64,000 bases of DNA. Origin: Alphaproteobacteria bacterium. GTDB lineage: Bacteria; Pseudomonadota; Alphaproteobacteria; JACZXZ01. The position numbers and the translations under genes were made by a program. Below are positions 8,643 to 53,206 of the stretch, piece by piece (the first letter of the stretch is position 1; the number at the start of each line of letters is the position of its first letter). The notes beneath the pieces were generated by a model. It did no database searches, was not told the origin of the DNA, and worked only from the letters and a program-made list of their open reading frames with translations. The DNA is taken from the NCBI GenBank assembly GCA_035509415.1, contig DATJLQ010000001.1, positions 101 through 64,100 on the forward strand, written 5' to 3'.

Positions 8643-8667
8643 GGCGTCCCCGAATGCCGGGGTCGCC

Positions 8668-9375: not shown

Positions 9376-9387
9376 GGCGCCGCAAGC

Positions 9388-10414: not shown

Positions 10415-10470
10415 GCAAGCTCCGTTAGTCGCCGATCCCGATCCCGACCCCGATTCGTGTCGCCGCTCGG

Positions 10471-23945: not shown

Positions 23946-24092
23946 GGATCGCTCCTCGAGGCGGCGGTCCCGTCCTGTAGCGGCTTCCGCCGGGCGGCGC
24001 AACGGCCTCGCGTGGCCGGCCAGGCTCAGGCGATTGACAGGCGCTGTGCCCCCATGGCCTATACGGCGCATGAGGACGGGCGGGGCACGCGC

Positions 24093-26221: not shown

Positions 26222-26268
26222 GCTATGCGACCCAACGACGGACGCATCAACGCAAGGGAAGACGCGAC

Positions 26269-27237: not shown

Positions 27238-27259
27238 CGCGCGGCGCGGGAGGACATCC

Positions 27260-28291: not shown

Positions 28292-28300
28292 GAGCTGCCC

Positions 28301-29176: not shown

Positions 29177-29295
29177 GCCGCACGCGGTCCCGGGCGGCGG
29201 GCGCCCCTGCCTCTCTGTGGCCGATCGCGCGCCCGATTGCAACCGCGCGCGGCGTCAGAGCGCCGGAGCCTCCGGCGCGTCAGAGCGTCTTGGCG

Positions 29296-31212
29296 TCAGA
29301 GCGTCCGGGCGAGCACCTCGAACGAGGAGGCGGCGCGGGCATTGGCTTGGGCGGCCAAACGCACCGGCGTGTTGGCGGCGCCGAACAGGTCGTAGTTGCG
29401 CCGCTCGACGATCTCGAAGAAGAAGCGGTCCTCGAAGGTCGCGGTGTAGGCGTGGAAGAACTCGCCGCCGGCCTGGCCGCGGTCGTAGAGCACGTTGAGC
29501 TCGCGCATGCGCTCGAGCGCGGGTGCTGGAATGTCGAAGCGCGCGCCGAGGTCTTCGTAGTAGTTCTTCGGGATGTCGAGGAAGGAGACGCCGCGGTCGC
29601 GCGCGCGCTCGACGAAATCGAGCAGGTTCGCGGTTTCGAGCGCGATCTGCTGGATGCCGGCGCCGCCGAATGCGCCCATGAAGCTCACGGCCGCGGTCGA
29701 TCCGCCCTCGGCGACGTTGAGCGGGATGCGGATCTGGCCGTCGCGCGAGCGCACGACGCGGCTCGAGAGGGCGCCGTAGGGATCGGCGAGCTCGATCTGG
29801 GGCTCGCTCACGAAGCCGAACATGGCCTTGTAGAACAAGAGCCAGGTGAGGAATTCGCCGCGCCGCACGACGTTGGAGAAATGGTCGATGCGCGTGAGCG
29901 GACCCGGCACCGTGGGCCCCAGGGGCACGAAATCGCGCTCCCAGATCGACGGGCCCGAGCGCGCGCCGGGCGCGGGCACGAAATAGATCAGGCTGTTCTC
30001 GATTCCCGCGATCGCCGGGATCAGCGTCTCGCCCTGGCCGATGCGCCCGTAATAGGTGCTCGAGCCGAGCGCGTTGGCGCGCTCGAGCGCGCGCTCCGGC
30101 TCGTCGAAGCGCAGCGCCATGGCGCACACCGAGGTCCCGTGCACCAAAAAGAAGGAATGGGCGAAGCTGTCGGTCTCGCGGTTGACCACGATGTTAACGT
30201 CGTTCTGGCGGTAGAGATCGATGTCCTTGCTGCGATGATGGCCCGCGCGCGCGAAGCCGAGCCCCTCGAGAAGCTTGGCGAGCCGCCCGGCCTCCTTGCC
30301 GCCCGAGGCGAACTCGACGAACTCGATGCCGCGGACCTGGGCGGGTGGCGGCATCGGCGCCCCCGACGGCGTCGCCGGCACCGTCACGGACGGATGCGCG
30401 CGCCGCAGCGCCTCGCCGCACAGCTCGAGCGAGCGCATGCCGTCGAGGGCGATGCCCGAGACCGAGGCGCCGCGGAACTGGTCGTTGAAGATCACGAGCG
30501 AAACCGGCCCGCTGTAGCCCGTGCGCACGACCGCCTCGAGGAACGGCTCGATCGGCCAGTCGCCCTGGCCGGGAAAGCAGCGGTGATGCCGGCTCAAGGA
30601 CATCGGGTCCATCACCAGCGCCGGCGCGTCCGCGATTTGGACCAGCGCGATGCGGTCGCCCGGCAACGACGAGATCGTCTCGATCGGGCCGTTGCGCACC
30701 AAAGTGTGGAAGCTGTCGAGCACGAGGCCGAGATTGGGCCGGTCGGCGAGACGCACGATGTCCCACGCCTGGGTCCATTCGCGCACGTGGGTGCCCCAGG
30801 CGAGCGCCTGGTAGCCGATGCGCAGCCCGCGCGCCTGGGCGCGGTCGGCGAGCAGCGCCAGGTCCGCGGCGGCGCGCTCCACCCCGTCGAGCGCCTCGGG
30901 TGCGACGTTCGAGCACACGCAGAGAAGCCGCGTGCCGAGCTCGTCCATCAGGTCGAGCTTGCGGCTCGCGCGCTCGAGGTTGCGCGCGCGTTGCGGCTCG
31001 GGCATGGCCTCGAAGTCGCGCAGCGGCTGGAGGGCCACGATCTCGAGCCCGAGGCCCTCGGCCATGCGGCGCACGTCGCGCGGCGAGCCGTTGAAGAAGG
31101 TCAGGTCGTTCTCGAACAGCTCGACGGCGCGGAAGCCGGCCTTGGCGACCGCCATCAGCTTGGCCTCGAGGGTCCCGCCCAGGGACGCCGTCGAGATCGA
31201 CCATTTGAGCAT
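29296..31212 (-). CDS. quiC: 3-dehydroshikimate dehydratase, fused QuiC1 type (sugar-phosphate isomerase/TIM-barrel N-domain + HPPD/VOC-like C-domain)
   Basis: 638 aa. The N-terminal 280 aa are xylose-isomerase-like TIM barrel (AsbF-like). The C-terminal 350 aa are 4-hydroxyphenylpyruvate-dioxygenase-like. Same architecture as Pseudomonas QuiC1. Confidence 0.8.
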   Translation of the reverse strand: MLKWSISTASLGGTLEAKLMAVAKAGFRAVELFENDLTFFNGSPRDVRRMAEGLGLEIVALQPLRDFEAMPEPQRARNLERASRKLDLMDELGTRLLCVCSNVAPEALDGVERAAADLALLADRAQARGLRIGYQALAWGTHVREWTQAWDIVRLADRPNLGLVLDSFHTLVRNGPIETISSLPGDRIALVQIADAPALVMDPMSLSRHHRCFPGQGDWPIEPFLEAVVRTGYSGPVSLVIFNDQFRGASVSGIALDGMRSLELCGEALRRAHPSVTVPATPSGAPMPPPAQVRGIEFVEFASGGKEAGRLAKLLEGLGFARAGHHRSKDIDLYRQNDVNIVVNRETDSFAHSFFLVHGTSVCAMALRFDEPERALERANALGSSTYYGRIGQGETLIPAIAGIENSLIYFVPAPGARSGPSIWERDFVPLGPTVPGPLTRIDHFSNVVRRGEFLTWLLFYKAMFGFVSEPQIELADPYGALSSRVVRSRDGQIRIPLNVAEGGSTAAVSFMGAFGGAGIQQIALETANLLDFVERARDRGVSFLDIPKNYYEDLGARFDIPAPALERMRELNVLYDRGQAGGEFFHAYTATFEDRFFFEIVERRNYDLFGAANTPVRLAAQANARAASSFEVLARTL

Positions 31213-31219
31213 TGCAGTA

Positions 31220-31298
31220 ATCTCCTATATTTCGGAGATAATCATATAACTACGCAATTTGAAAATAAAGCGGATTTGACGTAGGGTCGCCGGGCGAC
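31220..31298. promoter_or_regulatory. quiC/gntR divergent control region with palindromes and AT-rich box
   Basis: ATCTCC-N8-GGAGAT (31220-31239). AT-rich AATCATATAACT (-10-like for both directions). GTCGCCgGGCGAC palindrome (31286-31298). Confidence 0.35.
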
Positions 31299-31321
31299 TC
31301 TTTCCGAGCGGATGGGCGGCA

Positions 31322-32071
31322 ATGAGCGACGGAGCGGAACGGGCTGCCGGTTCGGCGACGCTGACGGAGGCGCTCCAGGAGCGTATCCGCCAGGATATCA
31401 TCTTGGGCGCGCTCGAGCCAGGCGCCAAGCTCCGGCTCGAGCGTCTGCGCAAGATTTACGGCGCGAGCGTCAACACGCTGCGCGAGACGCTCTCGCGCCT
31501 CGCCTCGGAGGGGCTGGTCGTGGCCGAGGGCCAACGCGGCTTCGCGGTGCTGCCGGTCTCGCTCGAGGATTTGCGCGACATCACCTACATGCGCCAGCTT
31601 CTCGAGTGCCATGCGCTCCGGGTCTCGATCGAGCATGCCGACCTCGACTGGGAGGCGCGCGTGGTGGGCGCCTACCACAAGCTTTCCAAGATCGACAACC
31701 TGGTCGAGGATCGCCCCGACGAATTCGGCGACGCGTGGGAGAAGTACAATCAGGAATTCCACGAGGCGCTGATCTCGAATTGCGGCTCGCGTTGGCTCGC
31801 GTTGTTCCACCGGGCCATGTACGACCACAGCCGGCGCTACCGCATGCTCTCGCTCAAGACCAAGCCGTTCCCGCGCTCGCAATCGGCCGAGGAGCACAAG
31901 GCTATTCTCGAGGCCGCGATCGCGCGCGACGCGGACCGGGCTTGCGCGATCCTCCAGGCTCACATCCTCAAGGGTGCCGATCTCGATCAGCCCGGCGAAG
32001 TGGCGGCCAAGGCGCAAAAGCGCGGCGCCGCGCGCCGGCGCCAGGGCAACGCGAGTGCCAAGCAGAAATAG
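31322..32071 (+). CDS. GntR-family (FadR/FCD subfamily) transcriptional regulator
   Basis: 249 aa with N-terminal wHTH (LRLERLRKIYGASVNTLRETLSRLASEGLV) and C-terminal FCD domain. Divergent from quiC. Confidence 0.9.
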   Translation: MSDGAERAAGSATLTEALQERIRQDIILGALEPGAKLRLERLRKIYGASVNTLRETLSRLASEGLVVAEGQRGFAVLPVSLEDLRDITYMRQLLECHALRVSIEHADLDWEARVVGAYHKLSKIDNLVEDRPDEFGDAWEKYNQEFHEALISNCGSRWLALFHRAMYDHSRRYRMLSLKTKPFPRSQSAEEHKAILEAAIARDADRACAILQAHILKGADLDQPGEVAAKAQKRGAARRRQGNASAKQK

Positions 32072-32098
32072 CGCCGCGCCGAGGAGCGCCGTCCGCGC

Positions 32099-33859
32099 TC
32101 ACACGGTCGCGACGTGGGAAATGCCCTTTCCCGGCGAATAGATGTCCAGAATGTTCCAGTGGCCGGCGGTCGGCGTCGGGTTGTTGACCATCGCGACGTC
32201 GATCACCGAAGGCCGGCCCGAAGCGATCGCCTCCGCGAGCGCGGGCTTGAACTCGGACGCCTTGCGGATGCGGATGCCGTGGACGCCGTAGCCGCGCGCG
32301 ATCGCGGCATAGTCGGGCATGAAGGGCCCGCCCGTCTCCGGGAAGGTCGTGCCGTAGGTCAGGCCGAAATGCGCCTTCTGCAGGCCCGCGATCGTGCCGA
32401 AGGCGTTGTTGTTCATGACCACCCAGATCACCGCGAGATTTTCCTCGGCCGCGGTCGCGAGCGTCGCGGGGTTCTGGCCGAAGCCGCCGTCGCCGACGAG
32501 CGAGACCACCACCCGGTCCGGCCGCGCGATCTTGGCGCCGAGCGCCGCGGGCGGGCCGAATCCCATGGTCGCGTAGCCGCCGGGGGTCAAGATGCTGCCG
32601 GGCGTATAGATGGGGAATTGCTGGCCGACGCCGTTCTTGTTCCAGCCCACGTCGGTCGTGACGATGGCGTCGCGCGGCAGCACCTCGCGCACTTCGGCGA
32701 GGATGCGCTCGGGCATCATCGGGAACGCCTCGCTCCGCACCATCTCGAGATTGGCCCGACGCTGCTCGGCGCGATAGGCCGCGATCTCGCGCTCGAGCGC
32801 CTCGTTGCGGCGCGCGCGCGGCACGAGCTCGCGCGCGATCCGGTTGAGCGTCTTGAGCGCCTGCTTCAAGTCCGCGACCGCGCCGATCGCGGTCGGGAAA
32901 TTGCGCCCGATCTCGCTCGGCTCGATGTCGATGTGGATGAGCTTCGAGGGCGGGAAGCTGAAGGTGTATTTGGGCTCCCAGGAGCTGCTGTCGGCCTCCT
33001 TGAAGCGCGTGCCGAGGCCGAGCATCCAATCGGCGCCGAGGCACTTCGCGTTGATGAACTTGGTACCCCAGAAGCCGGTCATGCCGAGGACGAGCGGATG
33101 GTCGTCGGGCAAGGCGCCCTTGCCCATGAGGCTGTGGGCGACCGGGATCGCGAGATGGTCGACCAAGGCGCGTAGCTCCTCCGCCGCCTGGGCCAGCACG
33201 ACGCCGCCGCCGACATAGATCACCGGCCGCTTCGCCGCGGCGAGCGTGCGCACGATCTCGGCCGCGACCGCGGCGTCGATGTCCGGCTTCGCGATCGACT
33301 TCGCGTTGAGGGCCAGCCGGTCGAAGCGCTCGACGTCCACCTCGCGCGAGAAAATGTCCATCGGCACGTCGACCAGGACCGGTCCCGGCTGACCCGATTC
33401 CGCGAGCTGGAACGCCTTCTCGATGATCTCGGGGAACAGCTCCGGGCTCTCGACGCGCCAGGCGCGCTTCACGAACGGGCGATAGATCTCGAACTGGGTC
33501 GCGTCGCCGTGGAGGTTGACCTCCTGGTGCGGATGCTTGCCGTAGTAATGGCTCGGGATGTCGCCCGCGATCACCACCATGGGAATGCAGTCGAGGGCCG
33601 CGTTGGCGACCCCGGTCGCGGCGTTGGTCAGGCCCGGGCCGAGATGGGTCAGGAGCACCGAGGCCTTCCCGGTCACGCGCGCGTAGCCGTCGGCGGCGTG
33701 CGCCGCGATCTGCTCGTGCCGCACGGTGACGAACTGGATCTTGCTGTTCGCCATCGCCGAGAGCACCGCGATGTTGGTGTGGCCGCACAGCCCGAAGACG
33801 TGGGTGATGCCGCGGCCTTCGAGGTAGCGGACCAGCTGATGGGAGACGAGATCGCGCAT
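32099..33859 (-). CDS. Thiamine-diphosphate-dependent enzyme (acetolactate-synthase-like; sulfoacetaldehyde acetyltransferase / oxo-acid lyase-type candidate)
   Basis: 586 aa from internal Met (MRDLVSHQL...) of the 1101-aa fused ORF. TPP motif GDGGFGQN-X22-NNNAFG and a central FAD/ADP-like domain. Confidence 0.85.
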   Translation of the reverse strand: MRDLVSHQLVRYLEGRGITHVFGLCGHTNIAVLSAMANSKIQFVTVRHEQIAAHAADGYARVTGKASVLLTHLGPGLTNAATGVANAALDCIPMVVIAGDIPSHYYGKHPHQEVNLHGDATQFEIYRPFVKRAWRVESPELFPEIIEKAFQLAESGQPGPVLVDVPMDIFSREVDVERFDRLALNAKSIAKPDIDAAVAAEIVRTLAAAKRPVIYVGGGVVLAQAAEELRALVDHLAIPVAHSLMGKGALPDDHPLVLGMTGFWGTKFINAKCLGADWMLGLGTRFKEADSSSWEPKYTFSFPPSKLIHIDIEPSEIGRNFPTAIGAVADLKQALKTLNRIARELVPRARRNEALEREIAAYRAEQRRANLEMVRSEAFPMMPERILAEVREVLPRDAIVTTDVGWNKNGVGQQFPIYTPGSILTPGGYATMGFGPPAALGAKIARPDRVVVSLVGDGGFGQNPATLATAAEENLAVIWVVMNNNAFGTIAGLQKAHFGLTYGTTFPETGGPFMPDYAAIARGYGVHGIRIRKASEFKPALAEAIASGRPSVIDVAMVNNPTPTAGHWNILDIYSPGKGISHVATV

Positions 33860-33900
33860 GGGATCCTCGCAATCGGTGCGCGCCGAGGCGCGCCCCGCGA

Positions 33901-35307
33901 CTAAAGAGCGTCGGTGCCGAAGAACTCGCCGAACAGCTCCTGCTCCGTCGGCCGGTCCTCGGCGATCGGTCGGCTGACCCAGGTGACGTTCATGTAGTGG
34001 CGCAGGTTGATGTTCTCGTTGGTGATGTTGCCGCCCCAGATGCCGCAGCCGAGGCTCGAGGTCATCGGCATGCCGTTGTTGAAGGCGCCCGCGTTCGCCT
34101 TCGACTGGGGTTGGCGCACCATGATGCGGCTGACCGGGGCCACGCGCGCGAGCCGGTCGACATGGTCGTCGTCGAACGAGTAGATGCCGCACGAGTGGCC
34201 CTTGCCGCCGACCTCGTAGATATCGTGCACCATCTGGAGCGCTTCGTCGAAGGTCCGGTACTTGAAGACCGCGAGCACGACGCACAGCTTCTCGCTCGAG
34301 AACCGGTGCTGCTTGCCGATCGCGTCCTGGCGTACGAACAGGAACACGCGGTCGGCCGGAATCGCGAAGCCGGCGCGCTCGGCGATGCGTTGCGCGGAGA
34401 TCGCGATGGTGTCGGGCCGGCGATGGCCCTCCTCGTCCCACAGCGCCTTCTCGAGCAGCGCCTTTTCGCGCTCGTCGCAGAGGTAGCCGCCCTCCTTCTG
34501 GAGCTGCGCGATCATCGCGTCGTAGAGCTTGGCGTCGACCAGCATGTTGCCGTCCGCCGAGCAGCCCGAGCCGAAATCGGAGGTCTTGCTGATGCGCGTG
34601 TTGCGCGCCGCATCCGCCACGTCCGCGGTCTCGTCGACCAGGACGGTCGAGTTCCCGGCCCCGACCCCGAAGGCGGGCCGGCCCGAGCTGTAGGCGGCCT
34701 CGACCATGGGCCGTCCGCCGGTCGCCATGGTAAGGTCGCAGGTCGACATCAGCTCGGCCGTGAGCGGGATGCTGGGCTTCCACACGCATTGGAACAGGTC
34801 CTCGGGGGCGCCCAGGCTCTTGAGCGTCTTGCGCATCACCTCGACCATCTCGTAGGTCGTCTGCCGGCTGCGCGGGTGCGGCGAGAAGATCACCGCGTCC
34901 TTGCATTTGAGCGCGTAGATCGCGGTCACCGGCGGCGTGAGCTCGGGATTGGTGGTCGGCACCAGCGAGACGATCACGCCCGCGGGCTTCGCGTACTTGA
35001 CCAGCCCTTTGGCTTCGTCGACCTCGATCACGCCCATGCTTTTCTGGCGCAACGCGTCGCGCAGCACGCCCTGGATCTTGAAGCGCTTGGCGCCGCGGCC
35101 GGCGCGGTCGCCGATGCCGCTCTCGTCGACGCCCATCTGGGCGATGCGCAGGAAGGTCTTCTCGTTGCCGGTCGCCCAGCCGATCGCCCGGCACAGCCGG
35201 TCGATCCGGGCCTGATCGTAATCCGCGACCGCGGCCATTGCCGCGCGCGCCTTGGCGAGAAGCTCGTGCGCGAGCACCCGCTCCTCGGGCGTGATGTCCC
35301 TGGCCAT
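33901..35307 (-). CDS. Aldehyde dehydrogenase, CoA-acylating type (EutE/PduP/SauS/SucD-like)
   Basis: 468 aa, ALDH superfamily, of the short (~470 aa) acylating subclass. Catalytic Cys in SDFGSGCSADGN. Confidence 0.75.
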   Translation of the reverse strand: MARDITPEERVLAHELLAKARAAMAAVADYDQARIDRLCRAIGWATGNEKTFLRIAQMGVDESGIGDRAGRGAKRFKIQGVLRDALRQKSMGVIEVDEAKGLVKYAKPAGVIVSLVPTTNPELTPPVTAIYALKCKDAVIFSPHPRSRQTTYEMVEVMRKTLKSLGAPEDLFQCVWKPSIPLTAELMSTCDLTMATGGRPMVEAAYSSGRPAFGVGAGNSTVLVDETADVADAARNTRISKTSDFGSGCSADGNMLVDAKLYDAMIAQLQKEGGYLCDEREKALLEKALWDEEGHRRPDTIAISAQRIAERAGFAIPADRVFLFVRQDAIGKQHRFSSEKLCVVLAVFKYRTFDEALQMVHDIYEVGGKGHSCGIYSFDDDHVDRLARVAPVSRIMVRQPQSKANAGAFNNGMPMTSSLGCGIWGGNITNENINLRHYMNVTWVSRPIAEDRPTEQELFGEFFGTDAL

Positions 35308-35355
35308 GATCGACGCGTCCTCCGCTCGATGCCGCCGACGCGGCGGCGGCGCGCG

Positions 35356-35739
35356 CTAGCGGGTCGGCAGGAATCCGGGCGGCGCGTAGCACCACAGCAG
35401 CCACAACGGCTCGTTGCCGTCGTTGTAGTGGACGTGCGCGTTGCCGGCGGGGATGAAGATCCAGTCGTTCTGCTTGAAGCGCATCTCGGTGCCGGCGGTG
35501 CGGTCGTAGGCGATGCCGCCGCCGCGGATCGCGACGTTGATTTCCTCGGAGCCCGGGTGATTGTGCTCGGCGCAGCGCTCGCCGGGCTCGAACACGGTCA
35601 GGCCGGCAACCATCTGCGAAGCGCCCACGCGGTCCTTGTCGATGAGCCTGAAGACCTTGCGCCGCAACCCCTCCTCGCCGAGGCCGAGCCAGATTTCCTT
35701 GGCGTCCTTGAAGGGGTCGAGGATTTGAATCTTGTTCAT
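35356..35739 (-). CDS. Cupin-domain protein (cupin_2), small
   Basis: 127 aa with metal-binding His motif HNHPGSEE...H. First gene of the cupin-ALDH-TPP operon. Confidence 0.8.
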   Translation of the reverse strand: MNKIQILDPFKDAKEIWLGLGEEGLRRKVFRLIDKDRVGASQMVAGLTVFEPGERCAEHNHPGSEEINVAIRGGGIAYDRTAGTEMRFKQNDWIFIPAGNAHVHYNDGNEPLWLLWCYAPPGFLPTR

Positions 35740-35837
35740 CGAGGTTCCTCCCTGACGCGCGCGGCGCCTCTTCTCGGGTTCCGATCGCCGCGCGGCCGCA
35801 TTACCGCCGATCGGCCCGCGCGCCGCAATCGATGGAG

Positions 35838-35889
35838 CGTAAACATCCTATGTTTCGCGTTTACGCCAAAAATGTACCATTTTGTACAT
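35838..35889. promoter_or_regulatory. Operator-like palindromes upstream of the cupin operon
   Basis: Nested palindromes CGTAAAC-N14-GTTTACG and AAACAT-cct-ATGTTT (35838-35865). ATGTAC-N6-GTACAT with A/T flanks (35872-35889). An AT-rich ATCATATAT box follows at about 35911. Confidence 0.45.
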
Positions 35890-36019
35890 CTCGGCGCCGA
35901 ACCGTGTCAATGGCAGGAACATCATATATTTTTCGAAATATGGAAAAGCATTCGGAATCCGTCGCGTACGCGACGCGGCGCGTCGGCGCCCGGGCCAAGC
36001 CGGCCCGGAGTCGCAACCG

Positions 36020-37210
36020 CTAGCGGCCCGCGCCGAGCACGCCGATCCGCACCAGCTCGTCGATCTCGCTGCGCTCGAGACCGAGCTCCTCGGCAACCGC
36101 CTTGCTGTGCTCACCCGCGCGCGGCACGTCGAGACGCCGGCCCAAGCGCGCGCCGCCGAGCTCGAGCGGCAACGCCGGAAGCCGCGTGGATCCGCCGTCG
36201 GGCAGGCTCACCTCGATCATGGCCCCTTGCGTGTCGAGCTGCGGGTCGTCGAACAATTCGTCCGGCCGCGCGATGGGCGCGAACGGCAGCCCGACGCGCT
36301 CGCATTTCCGCGCGATCTCGGCGCGGCTCATGGTCTTGAACAGCGTGCGCAAGTGCGGGATCAGCCGCTCGCGCGCGGCGACGCGTCGATTGTTCGTGGC
36401 GAGCGCCGCGTCGGCCGCGAGGTCGGCCGCGTCGAACTCGCCGCAGAAGGCGCGCCACTGGGTGTCGGTGACGACGCCGACGAAAATCTGCAGCGCGTCC
36501 GCGGTATCGAACACGTCGTAGACGCCCCAGGCGGAGATGCGCGCGGGCATCGGCTGGGCCGGCTGGCCGGTCACGGCATATTGCGCCATCGAGGTCGAGA
36601 CCAGGAACGCGACGTTCTCGAACAACGCGCTCCTGACGCATTGGCCGCGCCCGGTCCGGTCGCGCTCGCGCAACGCCGCGAGCACGCCGATCGCGGCGAA
36701 CAGGCCGCCCATCATGTCGTTGACCGGCGCACCGGCGCGTAGCGGCCGGCCCGGCGGCCCGGTCATGTAGGCGAGGCCGCCCATCATCTGCACCACCTCG
36801 TCGAGGGCGGCGCGATGCTCGTAGGGGCCGGAGAGGAATCCCTTGAGCGAGCAATAGACGAGGCGCGGGTTGAGCGGCTCGAGGGTCTCATAGCCCAGGC
36901 CCATCGCGTCCATCGCCCCGGGCCGGAAATTCTCGATCAGCACGTCGGCGCGCGCGATCAGCCGGCGCGCGAGATCGAGCCCGCGCGGCGCTTTCATGTC
37001 GAGCGCCAAGCTGCGCTTGTTGCGGTTGAAGCTGATGAAGAATCCGGCACCCGAGCCCGGGAGATTCCGCGTGTTGTCGCCGCCCTTGGCGGGCTCGACC
37101 TTGACCACGTCGGCACCCAGGTCCGCGAGGACCAGGCCGCAGCTCGGGCCCATCACCATATGGGAGAATTCCACCACGCGCACGCCGTCGAGGGGAAGGC
37201 GCGTCGTCAT
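36020..37210 (-). CDS. CaiB/BaiF-family (class III) CoA-transferase
   Basis: 396 aa from internal Met (MTTRLPLDGVRVVEFSHMVMGP...) with the class III CoA-transferase signature. Confidence 0.9.
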   Translation of the reverse strand: MTTRLPLDGVRVVEFSHMVMGPSCGLVLADLGADVVKVEPAKGGDNTRNLPGSGAGFFISFNRNKRSLALDMKAPRGLDLARRLIARADVLIENFRPGAMDAMGLGYETLEPLNPRLVYCSLKGFLSGPYEHRAALDEVVQMMGGLAYMTGPPGRPLRAGAPVNDMMGGLFAAIGVLAALRERDRTGRGQCVRSALFENVAFLVSTSMAQYAVTGQPAQPMPARISAWGVYDVFDTADALQIFVGVVTDTQWRAFCGEFDAADLAADAALATNNRRVAARERLIPHLRTLFKTMSRAEIARKCERVGLPFAPIARPDELFDDPQLDTQGAMIEVSLPDGGSTRLPALPLELGGARLGRRLDVPRAGEHSKAVAEELGLERSEIDELVRIGVLGAGR

Positions 37211-37253
37211 GCGGGTCGCTTCGTCATGCCGGGCGCGTTCCCATGCCGGCGCG

Positions 37254-38201
37254 TTACGCCGGGTGCGGAGTCGTATGGGCGAATCCCTTCGGCAGGCCCG
37301 CGTCGGAGACGAAGCCGTAGATCGGCTCGTCCGGCAGCGACGCGGCGAGCAGCCTGCGCGCGGCGAACAGCGCGTCGAAGTCGATGCCGGTCCTGAGCCC
37401 CATGGATTCGAGGAGGAAGACGAGATCCTCGGTGACGATGTTGCCGCTCGCCCCCGGCGCATAGGGGCAGCCGCCGATCCCGCCTTGGGACGAATCGAAG
37501 GTCCGCACGCCGACCTCGAGCGCCGCCACGACGTTGGCGAGCCCTTGGCCGCGCGTGTTGTGGAGATGGGCACCCCCGGTCCGCTCGCCGATCGCGGCGC
37601 GCACCGCGGTGAACAGGCGCCGCACCTGGACCGGGTTGGCATAGCCCACCGTGTCCGCGAGATTGACCGAATCGACGCCCGCCTCGGCCATGGCGAGTGC
37701 GAGGCGCACGGTGTCGCTTTCCGGCACCACGCCCTGGATGGTGCAGCCGAACGCGGTCGAGAGCCCGGTTTCGACCTTGACGCTCGGGTAGCGCTCGTTG
37801 CGCAAGGCGACGATCGCCTTCACCTCGGCCAGCATCTGCTCGTGGGTCATGCGCACGTTGCGCATGAGATGCGCGGCACTCACCGAGACCGGGATCGTGA
37901 TCATGTGCGCGCCGGCCTCGAGCGCGAGGCGCGCATATTTGAGGTTCGGCACCAGGACCGCGACGCGCAGGCGCGGGATGGTCAGCGCATGGGCCACGAC
38001 CGCGCCGATATCGGCCATCTGCGGCAAGATCTTGGGCGAGACGAACGAGCCGACTTCGATTTCGCGGAGGCCGGCCGCCGCGAGCGCCGAGATCCAGCGA
38101 TTCTTGTCCTCGGTCCGCATGGCGTGCTTGGCGCTTTGCAGGCCGTCGCGCGGGCCGACCTCGCTCACCAGGACGTCGATGTCGCTGTCGCTGCCGGTCA
38201 T
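37254..38201 (-). CDS. HMG-CoA-lyase-like (DRE-TIM metallolyase) family protein
   Basis: 316 aa from internal Met (MTGSDSDIDVLVSEVGPRDGLQS...). DRE-TIM motifs PRDGLQ and GGCPYAPGASGN. Confidence 0.85.
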   Translation of the reverse strand: MTGSDSDIDVLVSEVGPRDGLQSAKHAMRTEDKNRWISALAAAGLREIEVGSFVSPKILPQMADIGAVVAHALTIPRLRVAVLVPNLKYARLALEAGAHMITIPVSVSAAHLMRNVRMTHEQMLAEVKAIVALRNERYPSVKVETGLSTAFGCTIQGVVPESDTVRLALAMAEAGVDSVNLADTVGYANPVQVRRLFTAVRAAIGERTGGAHLHNTRGQGLANVVAALEVGVRTFDSSQGGIGGCPYAPGASGNIVTEDLVFLLESMGLRTGIDFDALFAARRLLAASLPDEPIYGFVSDAGLPKGFAHTTPHPA

Positions 38202-38351
38202 GGCCGATCTCCTCGCGCTCGCGCCGGCCGCGCGCGGCCGACGCCGCCTTGCCATGTCGCGCCGAAATCGCGCGCGGCGCCGCGTGCGGAGCCGTGATTG
38301 ATAATCTCGGGTCGGTTGACTGTCAACTCGCGGCCAAGTGCGCGCGGCTCC

Positions 38352-38807
38352 TCAGGCCGATGGCGCGCGCGCGGCGATGAGGCGCGCGATCGCGTCGACG
38401 GCGAGGACGTAGCCCTGCGGCCCGAAGCCCGCGAGCACGGCGGTCGCCGCCTGCGACACCAGCGAATGACGACGGAACGCGTCGCGCCGGTGGATGTTGG
38501 TGACGTGGATCTCGACGATCGGCCCGCCGAACGCGAGCAGCGCGTCGAGCACCGCGACCGAGGTCGTCGTCCAGCCCGCCGGGTTGATGACGATGCCGGC
38601 CGCGCGCTTCGACGCCTCCTGGATCCAGTCGACCAGCTTGCCCTCGCTGTTGGTCTGGCGGAACACGGCCGTGAGGCCGTGCTCCGCCGCGCGCCGCGCG
38701 CACTGCGCCGCCACCTCGGGCAGCGTGGTCGAGCCGTAGAGATGGGGCTCGCGCGTCCCGAGCAGGTTGAGGTTCGATCCGTTCAGGATATAGAGGCGCT
38801 TCGGCAT
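38352..38807 (-). CDS. aroQ: Type II 3-dehydroquinate dehydratase
   Basis: 151 aa MPKRLYILNGSNLNLLGTREP...NPAGWTTTS...IEIHVTNIHRRDAFR, the canonical type II DHQase. Confidence 0.9.
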   Translation of the reverse strand: MPKRLYILNGSNLNLLGTREPHLYGSTTLPEVAAQCARRAAEHGLTAVFRQTNSEGKLVDWIQEASKRAAGIVINPAGWTTTSVAVLDALLAFGGPIVEIHVTNIHRRDAFRRHSLVSQAATAVLAGFGPQGYVLAVDAIARLIAARAPSA

Positions 38808-39072
38808 GTTCGCTCTCCCTCGGATTCGGGCGCCCGGCGCCGGCACGCTCGGCGCTCGCGGCCGCCGGCCATCCCTAGGCCCGACGGCCCCGCTTGTCAA
38901 TTCGAGGCGGCCGGTTCGCCGGTGCCGCGACCGCTCGAAGCTTGGCGTGCCATGATTTGCATTTCGCGCCCGCACAGAGCATCCTGTGCCTCGGTCCATG
39001 GCGCTTCCCGCCTGCGTCGCGCGCGCCTCGGCGCCCCGCGACCGCCCGGGCCGCCCGCCGGAGATTTCCCCC

Positions 39073-39729
39073 ATGAGCCGCACGCACGCCGAGAAACACA
39101 AGCCGCGCCGGCGGCGCGTCAACGATCCCGAGGGGACCAAGCGCAACATCATCGAGGTCGCGACGCGCGAGTTCGCCGACAAGGGCTATGGCGGCGCCCG
39201 CGTCGACCAGATCGCGGCGCGCACCCGGACCAGCAAGCGCATGATCTATTACTATTTCGGCGGCAAGGAGGGCCTCTACATCGCCGTGCTCGAGGAGGCC
39301 TACCGCAGCATCCGCAGCATCGAATCGACCCTCGATCTCGGCCGGCGCGGACCCGAGGAGGCGCTCCGCAAGCTGGTCGCCTTCACCTTCGACTACCAGA
39401 ATGCGCACCCCAAGTTCGTGCGCCTGGTGATGAACGAGAACATCCTCAACGGCGCCCACGTCGCGCGCTCGACCGCGATCCAGCGCCTCAACACCGTCGT
39501 CATCGACACGTTGCGCGAGCTGCTCGCCCGGGGCCGGGCCGAGGGCGTGTTCCGGCGCGACATCGACCCGGTCGAGCTTCATATGTCGATCAGCGCGCTG
39601 TGCATCTTCAACGTCGCGAACCGCGCCACCTTCTCGACCATCTTCAAGCGCGACATGACGTCCGCCGCGGCCCTGGCCGCGCGCCGCACCCAGGTCGTCG
39701 ACCTGATCATCCGGTACGTGATGCGCTGA
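39073..39729 (+). CDS. TetR/AcrR-family transcriptional regulator
   Basis: 218 aa with N-terminal HTH (TKRNIIEVATREFADKGYGGARVDQIAARTRTSKRMIYYYFGGKEGLY). Located between aroQ and the TRAP operon. Confidence 0.9.
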   Translation: MSRTHAEKHKPRRRRVNDPEGTKRNIIEVATREFADKGYGGARVDQIAARTRTSKRMIYYYFGGKEGLYIAVLEEAYRSIRSIESTLDLGRRGPEEALRKLVAFTFDYQNAHPKFVRLVMNENILNGAHVARSTAIQRLNTVVIDTLRELLARGRAEGVFRRDIDPVELHMSISALCIFNVANRATFSTIFKRDMTSAAALAARRTQVVDLIIRYVMR

Positions 39730-39779
39730 GCGGCGCGGACCGCGGTCTCCCTCCGGGGCGGCGCCGCTGTTTTGGCTCG

Positions 39780-39809
39780 TTGACAAAATGAACCAACTGG
39801 TACATTTTG
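39780..39809 (+). promoter_or_regulatory. Promoter (-35 TTGACA) overlapping a 26-bp palindromic operator upstream of the TRAP operon
   Basis: TTGACA, then CAAAATGAACCAACTGGTACATTTTG (22/26 self-complementary; core ATGAAC-N6-GTACAT). Lies 80 nt upstream of the dctP ATG. Confidence 0.55.
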
Positions 39810-39891
39810 GCGCCCGATAAAGAGCCGCAAGAGCCCCTGCCGACGGGCGCGCCGCGCGACCCGGGCAGAATCGATCATGGGAGGATGAAAA

Positions 39892-40878
39892 ATGAAGTCG
39901 ATCAAACGTCGCACCGTTTTGGCCGCCGGCGCCTCGATCGTCGCGCTCGGCATGGCGGGCGTGCCGCGCGCGCGCGCCAAGACCAAGCTTCGCTTCTCCG
40001 GCGCGTTCACCGAGCAGGACCCTCGGGCCGACGCCTACAAGGCGCTCGCGCAGGCGGTCAAGGACGAGTTCGAGATCGAGCTTTACTTCAACAACACGCT
40101 CTTCAAGCAGGGCACCGAGCTCGTCGCCATGGAGCGCGGCAATCTCGAGATGTGCAACCTCGCCCCGCAGGACATCGCGAAGCAGGTGCCGGCCTGGACG
40201 CTCATGACCTCGGCCTATCTCTTCCGCGGCATCGACCACCTCGAGAAGACGTACAAGAGCGCTCCCGGCAAGGAGATGATCAAGCTCGCCAAGGACAAGC
40301 TCGGCGTCCAGGTCATCACGCCGGTCTATTTCGGCACGCGCCAGGTGAACCTGAAGCCCGACCGCAAGATCGAGACGCCGAAGGACATGGCGGGGATCAA
40401 GCTGCGCATGCCGCCGGGCGAGGTGTGGCAATTCCTCGGCGAGGCGATCGGCGCCAACCCGACGCCGGTTGCGTTCTCCGAGGTCTACACCGCGCTCCAG
40501 ACCGGCGCCATCGACGGCCAGGACAATCCGCTGGTGCTGAGCAAGCTGATGAAGTTCTACGAGGTCACCACCCAGTTCGTGCTCACCAGCCACCTGGTCG
40601 GCCACGACGTGATGGCGATGGATTCCAAGGTCTGGAACGCCATGACGCCGGCGCAGCAGGCGCGCTTCCAGTCGGCGGCGGAGAAGTCGATCAAGATCTC
40701 CACCTCGGCGTTCAACGGCCAGGAGCAGGACGCGGCGGCCTTCTTCAAGGCGCAAGGCCTGAAGCTCTACAAGCCCGACGTGGCCGCGTTCCGCACCTAC
40801 GCCCAGAAGAAGTACCTCGACAAGTACGGCGCGGATTGGCCCAAGGGCATGCTCGAGCGCATCAACGCGATCGCCTGA
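39892..40878 (+). CDS. TRAP transporter substrate-binding protein (DctP family)
   Basis: 328 aa with signal peptide and DctP-family fold motifs. Confidence 0.9.
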   Translation: MKSIKRRTVLAAGASIVALGMAGVPRARAKTKLRFSGAFTEQDPRADAYKALAQAVKDEFEIELYFNNTLFKQGTELVAMERGNLEMCNLAPQDIAKQVPAWTLMTSAYLFRGIDHLEKTYKSAPGKEMIKLAKDKLGVQVITPVYFGTRQVNLKPDRKIETPKDMAGIKLRMPPGEVWQFLGEAIGANPTPVAFSEVYTALQTGAIDGQDNPLVLSKLMKFYEVTTQFVLTSHLVGHDVMAMDSKVWNAMTPAQQARFQSAAEKSIKISTSAFNGQEQDAAAFFKAQGLKLYKPDVAAFRTYAQKKYLDKYGADWPKGMLERINAIA

Positions 40879-40998
40879 GCCGCACCCGCCGATTGCGGCA
40901 CGCAAGCGAATCCAGGCGGCCGTCCGCGGACGGTCGCCTGGACGCACGAACGGGATAGCGGCGCGCCGCCTTCGGCGCGCTGCGAGGGGATCCTGCCG

Positions 40999-41517
40999 AT
41001 GAGAGGGGAATCCGCCTTGACGCACTGGGGCCGGTGGCTGCGGCGGCGCGCGGAGAACGTCGCGGTGGCCCTCCTCGCGACCATGTTCGTCGCCTTCATC
41101 GTCCAGATCGTCTTCCGCTACGTGTTCGATTACCCGGTCGGCTGGACCGTCGAGGTCAGCACCGTCACGTGGCTCTGGACCGTGCTGTGGGGGGCCGCGT
41201 TCGTGCTCTCCGAGCGCGACGAGATCCGCTTCGACATCGTCTACGGCAGCGTGCCCGAGCGCTGGCGGCGCCGCTTCACGATCGTCACCGGGATCGCGCT
41301 CGTGGCACTCTACGGCGCGTCGCTGCCGGCCGCCTACCGCTACGTCGCCTTCATGAAGATCGAGACCTCGACCTATCTCCACATTCCGATCGATTACCTC
41401 TACTCGATCTACATCATCTTCGCCGTCGCCTGCATTTGCCGCTACGGCTGGCTGGTCTGGCGCGCGCTCCATAGGGCGAAGTCGCCGGTCACCGACCCCG
41501 CCAGGCTGGCGGACTGA
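40999..41517 (+). CDS. TRAP transporter small permease (DctQ family)
   Basis: 172 aa, 4 TM. Confidence 0.8.
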   Translation: MRGESALTHWGRWLRRRAENVAVALLATMFVAFIVQIVFRYVFDYPVGWTVEVSTVTWLWTVLWGAAFVLSERDEIRFDIVYGSVPERWRRRFTIVTGIALVALYGASLPAAYRYVAFMKIETSTYLHIPIDYLYSIYIIFAVACICRYGWLVWRALHRAKSPVTDPARLAD

Positions 41518-41519
41518 CC

Positions 41520-42818
41520 ATGACGATCACGCCCTTCGAGGTCTGCGTCGGCACCATCGTCGGCCTGGGCATCCTCGGCCTCCCGATCGGCCATTCGATG
41601 ATCGCCGCCTCGATCCTCTACCTGTTCCTCGCCCATCTCGATCCGGGCACCGCGGCCGAGCAGATCCTGAACGGCATCAACGACAGCTACGTGCTGATCG
41701 CGGTGCCGTTGTTCATCGTCGCGGCCGACATCATGAACGCCGGCAGCCTGACCGACCGGCTGCTCAATTTCTGCCTCGCCCTGGTCGGCCGGTTCCGCGG
41801 CGGCCTCGGCCACGTGAACGTCGTGGCCAACGTGATTTTCGCCGGCATGTCGGGCTCGGCGATCGCGGACGCGGTCGGCATCGGCCGCATCATCATCGGC
41901 ATGATGACCAAGGAGAACCGCTACCCCGCCGCGTATGCGGGCGCCATTACCGCCGCCTCCGCCGTGATCGGGCCGATCATCCCGCCCTCGATCCCGATGG
42001 TGGTTTACGCGCTCATCTCGGACGCCTCGATCGGCTACCTCTTCCTCGGCGGCGTGGTGCCCGGCCTGCTCTTGGGCGTCGCCTACATGGTGACCAACGC
42101 CGTCATCTCCCGCCGCCGGCGCTATCCCGTCGAGGCGCCGGTGCCGCTGCGCGAATTCCCCAAGATCACGATGCGCGCGTTCCCCGCGCTGATGCTGCCG
42201 GTGATCCTGCTGTTCGGCATCTATGGCGGGGTCACGACGCCGACCGAGGGTGCCGCGCTCGCCGCCGCCTACGCGCTCTTCGCCTCGACCGTGATCTACC
42301 GCGCGGTCACTTGGAAGCAGCTCTACGCCGCGTTCCTCACGAGCTTCAAGTCGGCCTCCTCGGTCGGCATCCTGATCGCCGGCGCCCTCGCCTTCAATTA
42401 CGTCGTAACGATCGAGAACGTGCCGACCGGGCTCCAGCATTTCATGAGCGGCTTCCATCTCTCGGCCTGGGGCTTCCTGCTGCTGGTGAACATCCTGCTC
42501 CTGATTCTCGGCTGCCTGCTCGAGGGCACCACCATCCTGCTCGTCATCGTTCCGATCTTCATTCCGACCGCGAAGTCGCTCGGCATCGATCTCGTCTATT
42601 TCGGCGTCGTGGTCGTGGTCAACATCATGATCGGCCTGGTGACGCCGCCCTACGGCCTGCTGCTGTTCGTCATCGCCAACATGACCAAAGAGCCGCTGGC
42701 CAAGATCGTGCGCGAGGCAGCACCCTTCATCGTCGCGGCGGTCGTGGTCCTGATCCTGATCACGGCCGTACCCGACCTGGTGCTCTGGCTGCCGCGCGAA
42801 ATCGGCTACAAGGGATAG
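41520..42818 (+). CDS. TRAP transporter large permease (DctM family)
   Basis: 432 aa, 12+ TM, DctM motifs. Confidence 0.92.
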   Translation: MTITPFEVCVGTIVGLGILGLPIGHSMIAASILYLFLAHLDPGTAAEQILNGINDSYVLIAVPLFIVAADIMNAGSLTDRLLNFCLALVGRFRGGLGHVNVVANVIFAGMSGSAIADAVGIGRIIIGMMTKENRYPAAYAGAITAASAVIGPIIPPSIPMVVYALISDASIGYLFLGGVVPGLLLGVAYMVTNAVISRRRRYPVEAPVPLREFPKITMRAFPALMLPVILLFGIYGGVTTPTEGAALAAAYALFASTVIYRAVTWKQLYAAFLTSFKSASSVGILIAGALAFNYVVTIENVPTGLQHFMSGFHLSAWGFLLLVNILLLILGCLLEGTTILLVIVPIFIPTAKSLGIDLVYFGVVVVVNIMIGLVTPPYGLLLFVIANMTKEPLAKIVREAAPFIVAAVVVLILITAVPDLVLWLPREIGYKG

Positions 42819-45265: not shown

Positions 45266-45329
45266 GCACGGCCCGACCGCTCAAGGGCCCGGCGTCCTCG
45301 CAGGGGCGCCGGGCCGCCGAGGGATAATA

Positions 45330-53038: not shown

Positions 53039-53206
53039 CCTCCCGCCGATGCCCGGCCGCTGTCCGCGGCTCTTGGACCCACGTCACAATGGGGCACGGG
53101 ATGAAATCCCGTCAAGGTAGTGTGGCGAAAGACTGACTCCCGATTTATAGCTTTCGAGATATCGGCCGAAACACCTCAACCCTTACGCGCTAAAGGCGAC
53201 CGCAGA

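Follow-up and report, generated by a model that had tools for sequence, protein, structure and literature searches.

What does a set of acyl-CoA enzymes do inside a quinate/shikimate gene island of an alphaproteobacterium? The window analysed here is the whole stretch of 64,000 nucleotides from Alphaproteobacteria bacterium (assembly GCA_035509415.1, contig DATJLQ010000001.1, positions 101 to 64,100 of the forward strand), whose own coordinates are used throughout. Six minus-strand genes fill positions 32099–38807 exactly, from the stop of a gene for a thiamine diphosphate (ThDP)-dependent enzyme at 32099 to the start of aroQ at 38807 (Table 1). In this order they encode the ThDP enzyme, a CoA-acylating aldehyde dehydrogenase (ALDH), a small cupin, a class III CoA-transferase (CaiB), a lyase resembling 3-hydroxy-3-methylglutaryl-CoA (HMG-CoA) lyase, termed HMGL-like, and the type II dehydroquinase AroQ, separated by spacers of 41, 48, 280, 43 and 150 bp. 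A preliminary description of the locus had called the same six genes; its coordinates proved exact, and Pfam and NCBIfam agree with the family call of every gene. Our comparison indicates that the cluster is very likely linked in function to quinate/shikimate catabolism. With a probability of about 0.6, the six genes represent the local version of a conserved, oxygen-independent degradation of quinate and shikimate that bypasses protocatechuate. Its general mechanism would probably proceed from ThDP-dependent ring cleavage to an aldehyde, then to an acyl-CoA and finally to cleavage by a lyase.

The evidence for this link comes from the distribution of the ThDP enzyme. A scan with one genome per species yielded 589 relatives, and the loci of the best 80 of them (70–85% identity) were compared both by tblastn with the window proteins and by de novo clustering of all open reading frames (ORFs) of the loci, neighbours being counted within 10 kb of the ThDP gene. 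Three classes of Proteobacteria (Alpha, Beta and Gamma) contribute to these 80 loci, as do Desulfobacterota (among them Desulfobacteraceae, Desulfobulbaceae, Desulfocapsaceae, Geobacteraceae and Geopsychrobacteraceae), Bacillota (among them Priestia, Bacillus, Robertmurraya, Sporomusa, Pelosinus and Anaerospora, with Negativicutes represented), Chloroflexota (Chloroflexia) and Planctomycetota (Phycisphaerales). The carriers thus include sulfate reducers, relatives of Geobacter, Negativicutes, denitrifiers and strict anaerobes. A gene of the shikimate dehydrogenase family lies near the ThDP gene in 41 loci and a dehydroquinase likewise in 41 (type I in 27, type II in 15); one or the other is present in 56 of the 80, against a rough estimate of about 2% for random 20-kb stretches. 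Transporters of the TRAP, TTT or Liv type and regulators of the IclR or LacI family are also frequent neighbours, TRAP genes alone occurring in 34–41 loci. The view of the preliminary description, that a linked and undescribed acyl-CoA route sits in this hydroaromatic island, is strongly supported by the recurrence of the quinate/shikimate gene link across the 80 species. Its remark that these enzymes stand outside the beta-ketoadipate route also holds, as none of them belongs to it.

The same loci define the module around the ThDP enzyme. An acylating ALDH is found in 53 of the 80 loci (same strand in 50/50, median distance −7 bp), and class III transferases are found in 20, chiefly in loci lacking the acylating ALDH: 49 loci have the acylating ALDH only, 16 have CaiB only and 4 have both. 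The CaiB loci tend to hold a non-acylating ALDH, which occurs in 15 loci overall. A lyase is present in 54 loci, either an HMGL-like protein (38) or a citrate-synthase-C-terminal-like protein, CitSL (17), with 37 loci carrying only the former, 16 only the latter and a single one both. The starting dehydrogenase is of the shikimate dehydrogenase family in 41 loci or a zinc-dependent alcohol dehydrogenase (Zn-ADH) in 22, two loci having both, and a 286-residue xylose-isomerase-like TIM-barrel protein (XylTIM286) occurs in 56. The alternatives at each step are therefore nearly mutually exclusive, and all four pairings of acylating ALDH or CaiB with HMGL-like lyase or CitSL are seen (33, 6, 7 and 10 loci). 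If these genes serve one pathway, mixing and matching at nearly every step makes it a clear case of non-orthologous displacement within a single pathway. The most compact arrangements are minimal operons of exactly five predicted enzymes plus a transporter, as in Bacillus coreaensis (L034; HMGL–XylTIM–ZnADH–TPP–ALDHa, where TPP denotes the ThDP gene and ALDHa the acylating ALDH) and Pelosinus (L066; ZnADH–DctPQM–HMGL–TPP–XylTIM–ALDHa). No ring-reducing or ring-cleaving dioxygenase gene is conserved across the loci.

In the window, the 280-bp gap divides the genes into aroQ–HMGL–CaiB and cupin–ALDH–TPP, and the preliminary description had treated these as separate modules. This division does not survive the comparison. 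In the closest relative (L003, ThDP enzyme 85% identical), HMGL, CaiB, ALDH and TPP form one co-directional run, in which a CaiB orthologue of 77% identity stands between HMGL and ALDH. Moreover, HMGL orthologues of 60–82% identity lie beside TPP/ALDH in L003, L014, L067, L072 and L076 (60–63% in the last four). On account of the L003 run and these HMGL neighbours, the two groups of genes are two halves of one pathway. Megablast returned partial matches only and no close relative; it provided the lead to plasmid pAZKH of Azoarcus sp. KH32C (L001), which carries a relative of the ThDP gene at 78% nucleotide identity, and to a fusion protein of Roseomonas that is described below. On pAZKH, genes for a CoA-transferase, CitSL, the ThDP enzyme, a shikimate dehydrogenase and a type I dehydroquinase form a co-directional run with a split QuiC-like pair upstream. 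A comparable CaiB–CitSL–TPP–SDH–aroD run (SDH, shikimate dehydrogenase) holds a ThDP orthologue of 72% identity in Aromatoleum diolicum 22Lin (L030), the organism that is the source of the ThDP-dependent enzyme cyclohexane-1,2-dione hydrolase (CDH). CDH itself was considered for this match and rejected, since it reaches no more than 177 bits with the query, whose 22Lin orthologue lies in the L030 run.

The ThDP enzyme is the member around which these loci are built. It contains all three domains of its superfamily but falls under every NCBIfam cut-off, including those for acetolactate synthase (ALS; TIGR00118, 435 bits against 538), Gcl (327 against 791) and Xsc (NF005713, 314 against 620); Oxc and HACL are absent from its top 25 NCBIfam matches, and IolD is not among its top matches. 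Among solved structures, it scores 277 bits with plant acetohydroxyacid synthase (AHAS), 250 with Gcl, 213 with Oxc, 157–197 with HACL and 177 with CDH. Two identities were discarded on these grounds: acetohydroxyacid synthase, because the ALS equivalog is missed and no ilvN-like gene (small regulatory subunit) adjoins the ThDP gene, and an orthologue of IolD or CDH, given the scores above. The enzyme belongs to a tight clade: in a library clustered at 50% identity, essentially a single representative (71%, 991 bits) stands for all orthologues, a second match is 59% identical (725 bits), and the rest are at most 45% identical. Homologues number in the thousands, the top 120 being 75–86% identical, and orthologues of 70–86% identity occur in at least six phyla, so far annotated only as 'thiamine pyrophosphate-binding protein' or 'acetolactate synthase'. 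We propose that this invariant signature enzyme cleaves a C–C bond of an alicyclic keto compound derived from 3-dehydroquinate (DHQ). The preliminary description had named as a possible outcome that the enzymes fall firmly into characterised clades, for instance an oxalate frc/oxc pair. We found neither the ThDP enzyme nor CaiB in any characterised clade: both lie under the cut-offs for Xsc, Oxc, ALS, Gcl, Frc, YfdE and the glutarate and mesaconate transferases, and reach only about 200–280 bits with the nearest solved structures.

Sister clades of the ThDP enzyme (42–45% identity) adjoin an AP_endonuc_2 (xylose-isomerase-like) gene or a cupin gene in other catabolic clusters. Because the same neighbours recur there, the pairing of a TIM-barrel or cupin protein with a ThDP enzyme is a general two-enzyme unit. 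Several metagenome or metagenome-assembled genome (MAG) contigs (L086/L087, L089, L090 and L091) hold such sister enzymes in very different clusters; one of them contains P450s, a CoA ligase, MaoC and TauD, and others contain class III aminotransferases, BNR proteins, 2-hydroxyacid dehydrogenases and an HpcH aldolase. Such clusters may serve to open the rings of other substrates, whether alicyclic compounds or aminocyclitols.

The cupin belongs to a small family of 98 homologues with invariant H59, H61, E65 and H102, which form a predicted His/His/Glu/His metal site, and an RRKVF motif. Outside the window it was seen in five contexts, three of which are a Thermodesulfobacteriota MAG (L083), a Clostridia MAG (L085) and a contig from a metagenome (L084). 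In L013, L064, L083 and L085 it is encoded directly beside the ThDP enzyme; in L084 the two genes are about 5 kb apart within one cluster. Each of the five loci carries a dehydroquinase or Zn-ADH together with ALDH, CaiB or CitSL, and none has an AP_endonuc_2 gene. Since the window likewise has no XylTIM286 homologue, XylTIM is missing from six of six cupin loci, and the cupin and XylTIM286 are alternatives for one step. The enzyme of this step is related to enzymes producing enediolates of keto-cyclitols, the closest solved relative of XylTIM286 being the inosose isomerase IolI. We propose that the cupin acts on DHQ as an enediolate-forming dehydratase or isomerase.

The acylating ALDH would turn the aldehyde product of the ThDP enzyme into an acyl-CoA. 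SauS is its best NCBIfam model, although at 459 bits it stays below the threshold of 600 (NF047625), and its closest PDB entry is the acylating succinate-semialdehyde dehydrogenase SucD (285 bits). In the Thermodesulfobacteriota MAG, a tungsten-type aldehyde:ferredoxin oxidoreductase (AFOR_N/AFOR_C; L083 10338–12191) directly follows the cupin–TPP pair. Its position in the place of the ALDH indicates that the ThDP product is an aldehyde, and it would be a putative third way of oxidising that compound. The similarity to SucD also invites another explanation, in which the ThDP enzyme decarboxylates a 2-oxo acid such as 2-oxoglutarate, the ALDH forms succinyl-CoA as a donor for CaiB, and the ring is opened by another enzyme. 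AHAS-like 2-oxoglutarate decarboxylases exist, and relatives of CaiB use succinyl-CoA. This explanation appears very unlikely, because the acylating ALDH occurs without CaiB in 49 of the 80 loci, the CaiB loci usually have a non-acylating ALDH, which would give succinate rather than succinyl-CoA, and the minimal operons contain no other candidate for ring opening.

CaiB is far under all equivalog cut-offs, namely Frc (TIGR03253, 242 against 504 bits in two split stretches) and the mesaconate-type transferase (NF041294, 204 against 700), and likewise under those for YfdE and the glutarate transferase. Its nearest PDB entry is an uncharacterised CaiB protein (4ed9), followed by SUGCT (204 bits) and Frc (197 bits). 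We propose that CaiB activates a free acid derived from the ring or moves CoA between the carboxylates of that acid. In the window, where it accompanies the acylating ALDH, one may speculate that it salvages free acid or shifts CoA intramolecularly, as some class III transferases do.

These scores bear on the functions that the preliminary description had considered for the individual enzymes, and on the related possibility that both operons are independent of the quinate genes, CaiB and HMGL handling itaconate, citramalate or an HMG-type dicarboxylate and ALDH and TPP handling substrates of the SauS/Xsc or Oxc/HACL type. The rank of SauS as best ALDH model, the weak similarity of CaiB to Frc and SUGCT and a TauE/SafE gene that flanks the KH32C cluster speak for such independence. 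Every curated cut-off is missed by a wide margin, and the island yielded neither pta nor liu genes, nor any gene for sulfite handling, an itaconyl-CoA hydratase or an oxalate antiporter. Furthermore, dehydroquinase or shikimate dehydrogenase accompanies the ThDP gene in 56 of the 80 species, which span at least six phyla, and a shared operator joins the cupin operon to the TRAP–SDH operon. Independence of the two operons is thus already largely refuted and seems highly improbable. The citramalyl-CoA or itaconate type of C5-dicarboxylate cleavage is not borne out, as there is no hydratase in the six genes or the flanks scanned, the mesaconate-type model is missed and the lyase alternates with CitSL. 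A sulfoacetaldehyde (SauS/Xsc) function is contradicted by the SauS and Xsc scores and by the lack of pta, a SauT ligase or a sulfite exporter among the island genes scanned, a TauE-like gene being present in KH32C only. Oxalate degradation by Frc/Oxc (formyl-CoA transferase and oxalyl-CoA decarboxylase) or HACL chemistry fares no better, given the Frc score and the stronger PDB match to AHAS (277 bits) than to Oxc or HACL.

The last step would be catalysed by the HMGL-like lyase, which we propose cleaves a 3-hydroxy-3-carboxy-acyl-CoA to acetyl-CoA and a 2-oxo acid. The protein meets the HMG-CoA lyase subfamily model PRK05692 (273 bits, cut-off 246) and no narrower model. CitSL, which takes its place elsewhere, meets the citryl-CoA lyase equivalog of NCBIfam (429 bits, cut-off 261). 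Among the genes scanned, the island contains neither methylcrotonyl-CoA carboxylase nor methylglutaconyl-CoA hydratase, which would mark a liu/mcc context. Roseomonas gilardii plasmid pRo-1 (L002; NZ_CP095555.1 345068–347335) encodes a 755-residue CaiB–HMGL fusion, annotated as 'hydroxymethylglutaryl-CoA lyase', that matches the window CaiB at 57% and the window HMGL at 52%. The fusion gene adjoins an aconitase-family gene and a LysR regulator, a hint that the substrate of this CaiB/HMGL subtype may be a tricarboxylate resembling citrate.

From these parts a pathway can be outlined, in which step functions are assigned by family and context and we infer the intermediates. C1 of quinate is a tertiary alcohol bearing a carboxylate, the motif that is cut by citryl-CoA and HMG-CoA lyases. 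Since DHQ alone keeps both groups at C1, the route must pass through this compound. The combination of IolE and IolD offers a precedent, in which dehydration of a keto-cyclitol is followed by ThDP-dependent ring hydrolysis. In the proposed scheme, the TRAP transporter would import the substrate, and quinate/shikimate dehydrogenase would oxidise it to DHQ or 3-dehydroshikimate, the latter being returned to DHQ by AroQ. The cupin, or XylTIM286 in most genomes, would act as an enediolate-forming metal enzyme and eliminate water across C4/C5 in the manner of IolE, giving 1-hydroxy-3,4-dioxocyclohexane-1-carboxylate (the 3,4-dione). The ThDP enzyme would then cut the C3–C4 bond of the dione following IolD/CDH logic, so that C3 becomes an aldehyde and C4 a carboxylate; the product, OHC-CH2-C(OH)(COOH)-CH2CH2-COOH, may be called 'homocitrate semialdehyde'. 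The acylating ALDH would convert it to the CoA thioester, whereas in other genomes an ordinary ALDH would form the free acid for activation by CaiB. Finally, the HMGL-like lyase, or CitSL elsewhere, would split the tertiary-alcohol acyl-CoA into acetyl-CoA and 2-oxoglutarate. This last step would be a 'homocitryl-CoA' lyase reaction, the chemistry of homocitrate synthase in reverse. The preliminary description had expected products at the level of acetyl-CoA and pyruvate; acetyl-CoA is likely to stand, and in place of a pyruvate-level compound the second product is probably a 2-oxo acid, 2-oxoglutarate.

The dione scheme is favoured because it calls for the five conserved enzymes and no others, leaves no orphan step on the way to central metabolites and needs no oxygen, which matches the taxa that carry the genes. 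In addition, the nearest characterised relatives fit the chemistry: XylTIM286 resembles IolI, the ALDH resembles SucD and SauS, which act on anionic aldehydes, CaiB resembles SUGCT, which acts on a dicarboxylate, and CitSL is a citryl-CoA lyase by its model. The specific sequence of five enzyme steps through the dione and homocitryl-CoA to acetyl-CoA and 2-oxoglutarate is nevertheless tentative, and several observations weigh against it or against the pathway as a whole. The presumed substrates, the dione and 2-oxoglutarate were deduced by chemical parsimony from the genes present. In sequence, the ThDP enzyme stands closer to AHAS (277 bits) and glyoxylate carboligase than to CDH (177 bits), IolD is not in its top matches, and the closest solved relative of XylTIM286 is an isomerase rather than a dehydratase. 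The HMGL-like proteins are far closer to true HMG-CoA lyases (211 bits) than to homocitrate synthase (51 bits). The window holds both the acylating ALDH and CaiB, which a simple either/or scheme does not explain, and the QuiC-like protein encoded nearby could divert carbon to protocatechuate. KH32C has no ALDH annotated within 10 kb. In Priestia megaterium (L023–L025, around 7400–12600), the set is reduced to a LacI gene, an opposite-strand shikimate-kinase-like gene, a non-acylating ALDH, TPP and aroD, and genes for a lyase, a transferase or a TIM/cupin protein are missing within 10 kb; in this species the pathway may be scattered over the genome or put to a different use.

Some of these points would be met by a different chemistry within the same hydroaromatic pathway, in which the ThDP enzyme cleaves the alpha-hydroxy-ketone of DHQ directly, as an acyloin- or transketolase-type lyase, and the XylTIM or cupin protein is an aldose–ketose or keto-cyclitol isomerase. 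The products would then be acetyl-CoA and a hydroxylated C5 oxo-acid, or oxaloacetate through citryl-CoA-like chemistry, instead of 2-oxoglutarate. Such a scheme suits the AHAS-like carboligase/lyase fold of the ThDP enzyme, the isomerase activity of IolI, the proximity of the HMGL-like proteins to true HMG-CoA lyases and the match of CitSL to the citryl-CoA lyase model. It also agrees with the many isomerases among the cupin and xylose-isomerase folds, both of which are rich in them. Its products would require extra dedicated enzymes, whereas the minimal operons have five only, and conversion of DHQ to a 4-keto isomer would seem to bring no obvious benefit for cleavage. We regard this chemistry, the main rival, as unlikely; the remaining explanations, those other than this one, fit the co-occurrence pattern poorly.

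The QuiC-like gene raises the last of these explanations, that the cluster works downstream of protocatechuate. Its product, in which an HPPD-like domain is joined to a xylose-isomerase-like TIM barrel, may act as a dehydroshikimate dehydratase or else supply the proposed route with an alternative dehydratase. If it and XylTIM were ordinary dehydroshikimate dehydratases, the ThDP enzyme, ALDH and lyase would process a product of the aromatic ring. The gene neighbours the cluster in the window, its homologues adjoin TPP in 14 loci, and a split form lies in the co-directional run of TPP in Aromatoleum and KH32C; the xylose-isomerase-like fold also includes the AsbF- and QuiC-type dehydratases. 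A ThDP enzyme requires a carbonyl substrate, and protocatechuate has none. The loci share no conserved genes for ring reduction or ring-cleaving dioxygenases, the QuiC-like gene is missing from the cupin-type and minimal operons, and the window protein reaches only 684 bits against the QuiC cut-off of 1200. A role downstream of protocatechuate is hence scarcely probable. No gene of protocatechuate ring cleavage (pcaGH, pcaB, pcaC, pcaD, pcaIJ or pcaF) is present among the ORFs scanned in the window; such genes may lie elsewhere in the genome.

The proposed pathway can be compared with several known systems. Myo-inositol catabolism (IolG, IolE, IolD, IolB, IolC, IolJ and IolA) likewise employs a dehydrogenase that yields a keto-cyclitol, a TIM-barrel enzyme, ThDP-dependent ring opening to an aldehyde-acid and, at a later stage, an acylating ALDH. 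The iol set also includes a cupin, IolB, and XylTIM286 is nearest to IolI. Unlike the iol system, the cluster has a ThDP enzyme that is no IolD orthologue and lacks the kinase and aldolase (IolC and IolJ), and its cupin replaces the TIM-barrel enzyme rather than working after ring opening. The carboxylate and tertiary alcohol at C1 of its substrate would call for an ending with a CoA-ester lyase, not with a phospho-sugar aldolase. CDH of A. diolicum 22Lin is a ThDP enzyme that works under anoxic conditions and opens an alicyclic 1,2-dione by hydrolysis, giving an omega-oxo acid, which is by analogy the reaction type proposed here; it differs from the window enzyme in sequence, and 22Lin carries the 72%-identical orthologue separately. 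Classical quinate/shikimate catabolism (QuiA/QsuD, QuiB/AroQ and QuiC/QsuB, leading to protocatechuate and the beta-ketoadipate pathway) shares uptake, quinate/shikimate dehydrogenase and dehydroquinase with the island, which also contains the QuiC-like gene. In contrast to it, the window scan shows no pca genes, the conserved partners are the ThDP enzyme, ALDH and lyase, and the cluster occurs in strict anaerobes, which are unable to use oxygen-dependent ring-cleavage dioxygenases.

Citryl-CoA lyase (acting with citryl-CoA synthetase) and HMG-CoA lyase resemble the proposed lyase step in that both perform a retro-Claisen cut of a 3-hydroxy-3-substituted acyl-CoA with release of acetyl-CoA. 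Here the context is hydroaromatic instead of the reductive TCA cycle or leucine/ketone-body metabolism, with the ThDP enzyme, ALDH and dehydroquinase as conserved partners. The acyl-CoA would come from the acylating ALDH or the class III transferase, and the substrate is probably a C7 tricarboxylate derivative. In the SauS/Xsc and Frc/Oxc systems, too, the partner of an ALS-like ThDP enzyme is an acylating ALDH or a class III CoA-transferase, yet the cluster misses all of their equivalog cut-offs and has no pta, sulfite or oxalate-transport genes. Taken together, we rate the pathway as a catabolic route that would follow IolE/IolD-like logic and close with a citryl-CoA-lyase-type ending.

In soil, litter and the gut, quinate and shikimate rank with the most abundant acids of plant origin. 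To our knowledge, the sole well-described bacterial route for them runs through protocatechuate and, in aerobes, on to oxygen-dependent ring cleavage. Brune and Schink reportedly isolated, in the early 1990s, fermenters that use quinate and shikimate without aromatic intermediates, the enzymology being left unresolved. A literature search, whose coverage excluded most subscription journals, returned no description of quinate/shikimate degradation by a route that depends on ThDP or avoids aromatic compounds. In NCBIfam (June 2026), equivalogs are lacking for the ThDP enzyme, the ALDH, CaiB and XylTIM286, and database names are generic. These three observations suggest that the route is undescribed, with prior work possible in the journals outside coverage. 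If the proposal is correct, it would account for hydroaromatic turnover in anoxic habitats without aromatic intermediates and would give a function to a very conserved ThDP family, which would become a new functional family of ALS-like enzymes. It would also provide the third case of ThDP-dependent opening of an alicyclic ring, after IolD and CDH, define an interchangeable cupin/TIM-barrel partner pair and supply enzymes for the biocatalytic conversion of shikimate-pathway intermediates.

The cupin operon is connected to the uptake genes by a candidate operator. The longest meaningful inverted repeat of the region links the 280-bp gap in front of the cupin gene to the sequence ahead of dctP and resolves into an 18-bp palindrome, ATGTAC-N6-GTACAT (Table 1). 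By chance 0.21 matches would be expected per window, and three matches were reached in none of 100 shuffles. The preliminary description had reported operator motifs shared with the TRAP operon; this was confirmed for the cupin operon, but no copy was found in the aroQ promoter region. A single repressor binding the shared palindrome would control both the TRAP–SDH and the cupin–ALDH–TPP operons. The TetR-family regulator is the candidate binder: its homologues (42–59% identity) lie near TPP in 15 loci, and palindromes related to that of the window occur in L067 and L010, both of which have a TetR homologue. In L067 (Steroidobacteraceae MAG), the related palindromes stand 31 bp upstream of an SDH–ALDHa–TPP–HMGL run, and in L076 (Ramlibacter) one is found upstream of the SDH gene. 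A weaker third match in the window (57520–57537, two mismatches) lies within an SBP_bac_5 gene and is probably due to chance.

Table 1. Features of the island, with positions in the 64-kb window.
Feature	Position	Strand	Assignment or remark
Gfo/Idh/MocA (IolG-like) oxidoreductase	27260-28291	+	possible accessory dehydrogenase; island edge
QuiC-like two-domain protein, 638 aa	29296-31212	-	xylose-isomerase-like TIM barrel fused to HPPD-like domain
GntR (FadR/CsiR-like) regulator	31322-32071	+	between QuiC-like gene and TPP operon
ThDP (TPP) enzyme, 586 aa	32099-33859	-	Pfam TPP_enzyme_N, _M and _C, all three domains
CoA-acylating ALDH, 468 aa	33901-35307	-	NCBIfam top models SauS, AdhE N-terminus, EutE
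Cupin, predicted metal-binding, 127 aa	35356-35739	-	Pfam Cupin_2
Operator-like palindrome, copy 1, ATGTACCATTTTGTACAT	35872-35889		0 mismatches; 280-bp gap upstream of cupin-ALDH-TPP operon, beside TTGACA
Class III (CaiB/BaiF) CoA-transferase, 396 aa	36020-37210	-	Pfam CoA_transf_3, 377 bits
HMG-CoA-lyase-like DRE-TIM lyase, 315 aa	37254-38201	-	Pfam HMGL-like
AroQ, type II 3-dehydroquinate dehydratase, 151 aa	38352-38807	-	DHquinase_II 176 bits; NF003806 205 bits, cut-off 171
TetR-family regulator	38986-39729	+	divergent from aroQ, upstream of TRAP operon
Operator-like palindrome, copy 2, ATGAACCAACTGGTACAT	39788-39805		1 mismatch; upstream of dctP, beside TTGACA
TRAP transporter (DctP 39892-40878, DctQ 40999-41517, DctM 41520-42818)	39892-42818	+	probably quinate/shikimate uptake
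Quinate/shikimate dehydrogenase (SDH), 310 aa	42823-43755	+	PRK12549 317 bits, cut-off 235
Liv-type ABC transporter	44114-49428	+	second uptake system of island

A scan for consensus sigma-70 promoters over 31100–40000 gave none that met the criteria; TTGACA hexamers are visible, and terminator-like sites in the same interval do not exceed the chance level. An Rfam scan of 27000–50500 recovered no RNA family and hence no riboswitch, and a generic repeat search yielded only GC-rich chance repeats besides the palindrome pair.

The G+C content of the window is about 68%, and reading frames were picked by third-position GC. For the HMGL-like gene, the ATG at 38201 has a GGAG ribosome-binding site, whereas a longer reading of 333 residues has none. 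An exact-sequence look-up, which left out the HMGL-like protein, found the ThDP enzyme, ALDH, cupin, CaiB, AroQ and the QuiC-like protein as called. The public records (HUC60347–HUC60354, from the MAG 'Alphaproteobacteria bacterium') carry generic names only, and PGAP names the QuiC-like protein 'TIM barrel protein'.

Other members of the island recur less often near TPP. Homologues of the Gfo/Idh/MocA oxidoreductase (28–53% identity) are found in 12 loci, those of the GntR regulator in 8, and the LivK/LivH families in 8. An SMP-30/gluconolactonase-like protein lies at the island edge (Gfo and SMP-30 together spanning 27260–29242) and is near TPP only in L076. Beyond this edge, 23397–27384 contains overlapping long ORFs on both strands, with third-position GC of 0.66–0.77 against 0.88–0.94 in the neighbours and ambiguous codon bias; three minus-strand candidate ORFs there have no NCBIfam match. 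In KH32C, the TauE/SafE gene ('sulfite exporter family') and an IS3 transposase gene flank the cluster (L001 locus 5830–8149). At the other end of the window island, a second shikimate dehydrogenase (49491–50333, plus strand) meets the biosynthetic aroE equivalog NF001312 (336 bits, cut-off 295). This gene, which is followed on the minus strand (50358–54882) by an MFS/HlyD efflux pair, prephenate dehydratase and kdsB, is probably the housekeeping aroE, with which the catabolic island ends. The remaining ORFs scanned in the window are housekeeping or unrelated.

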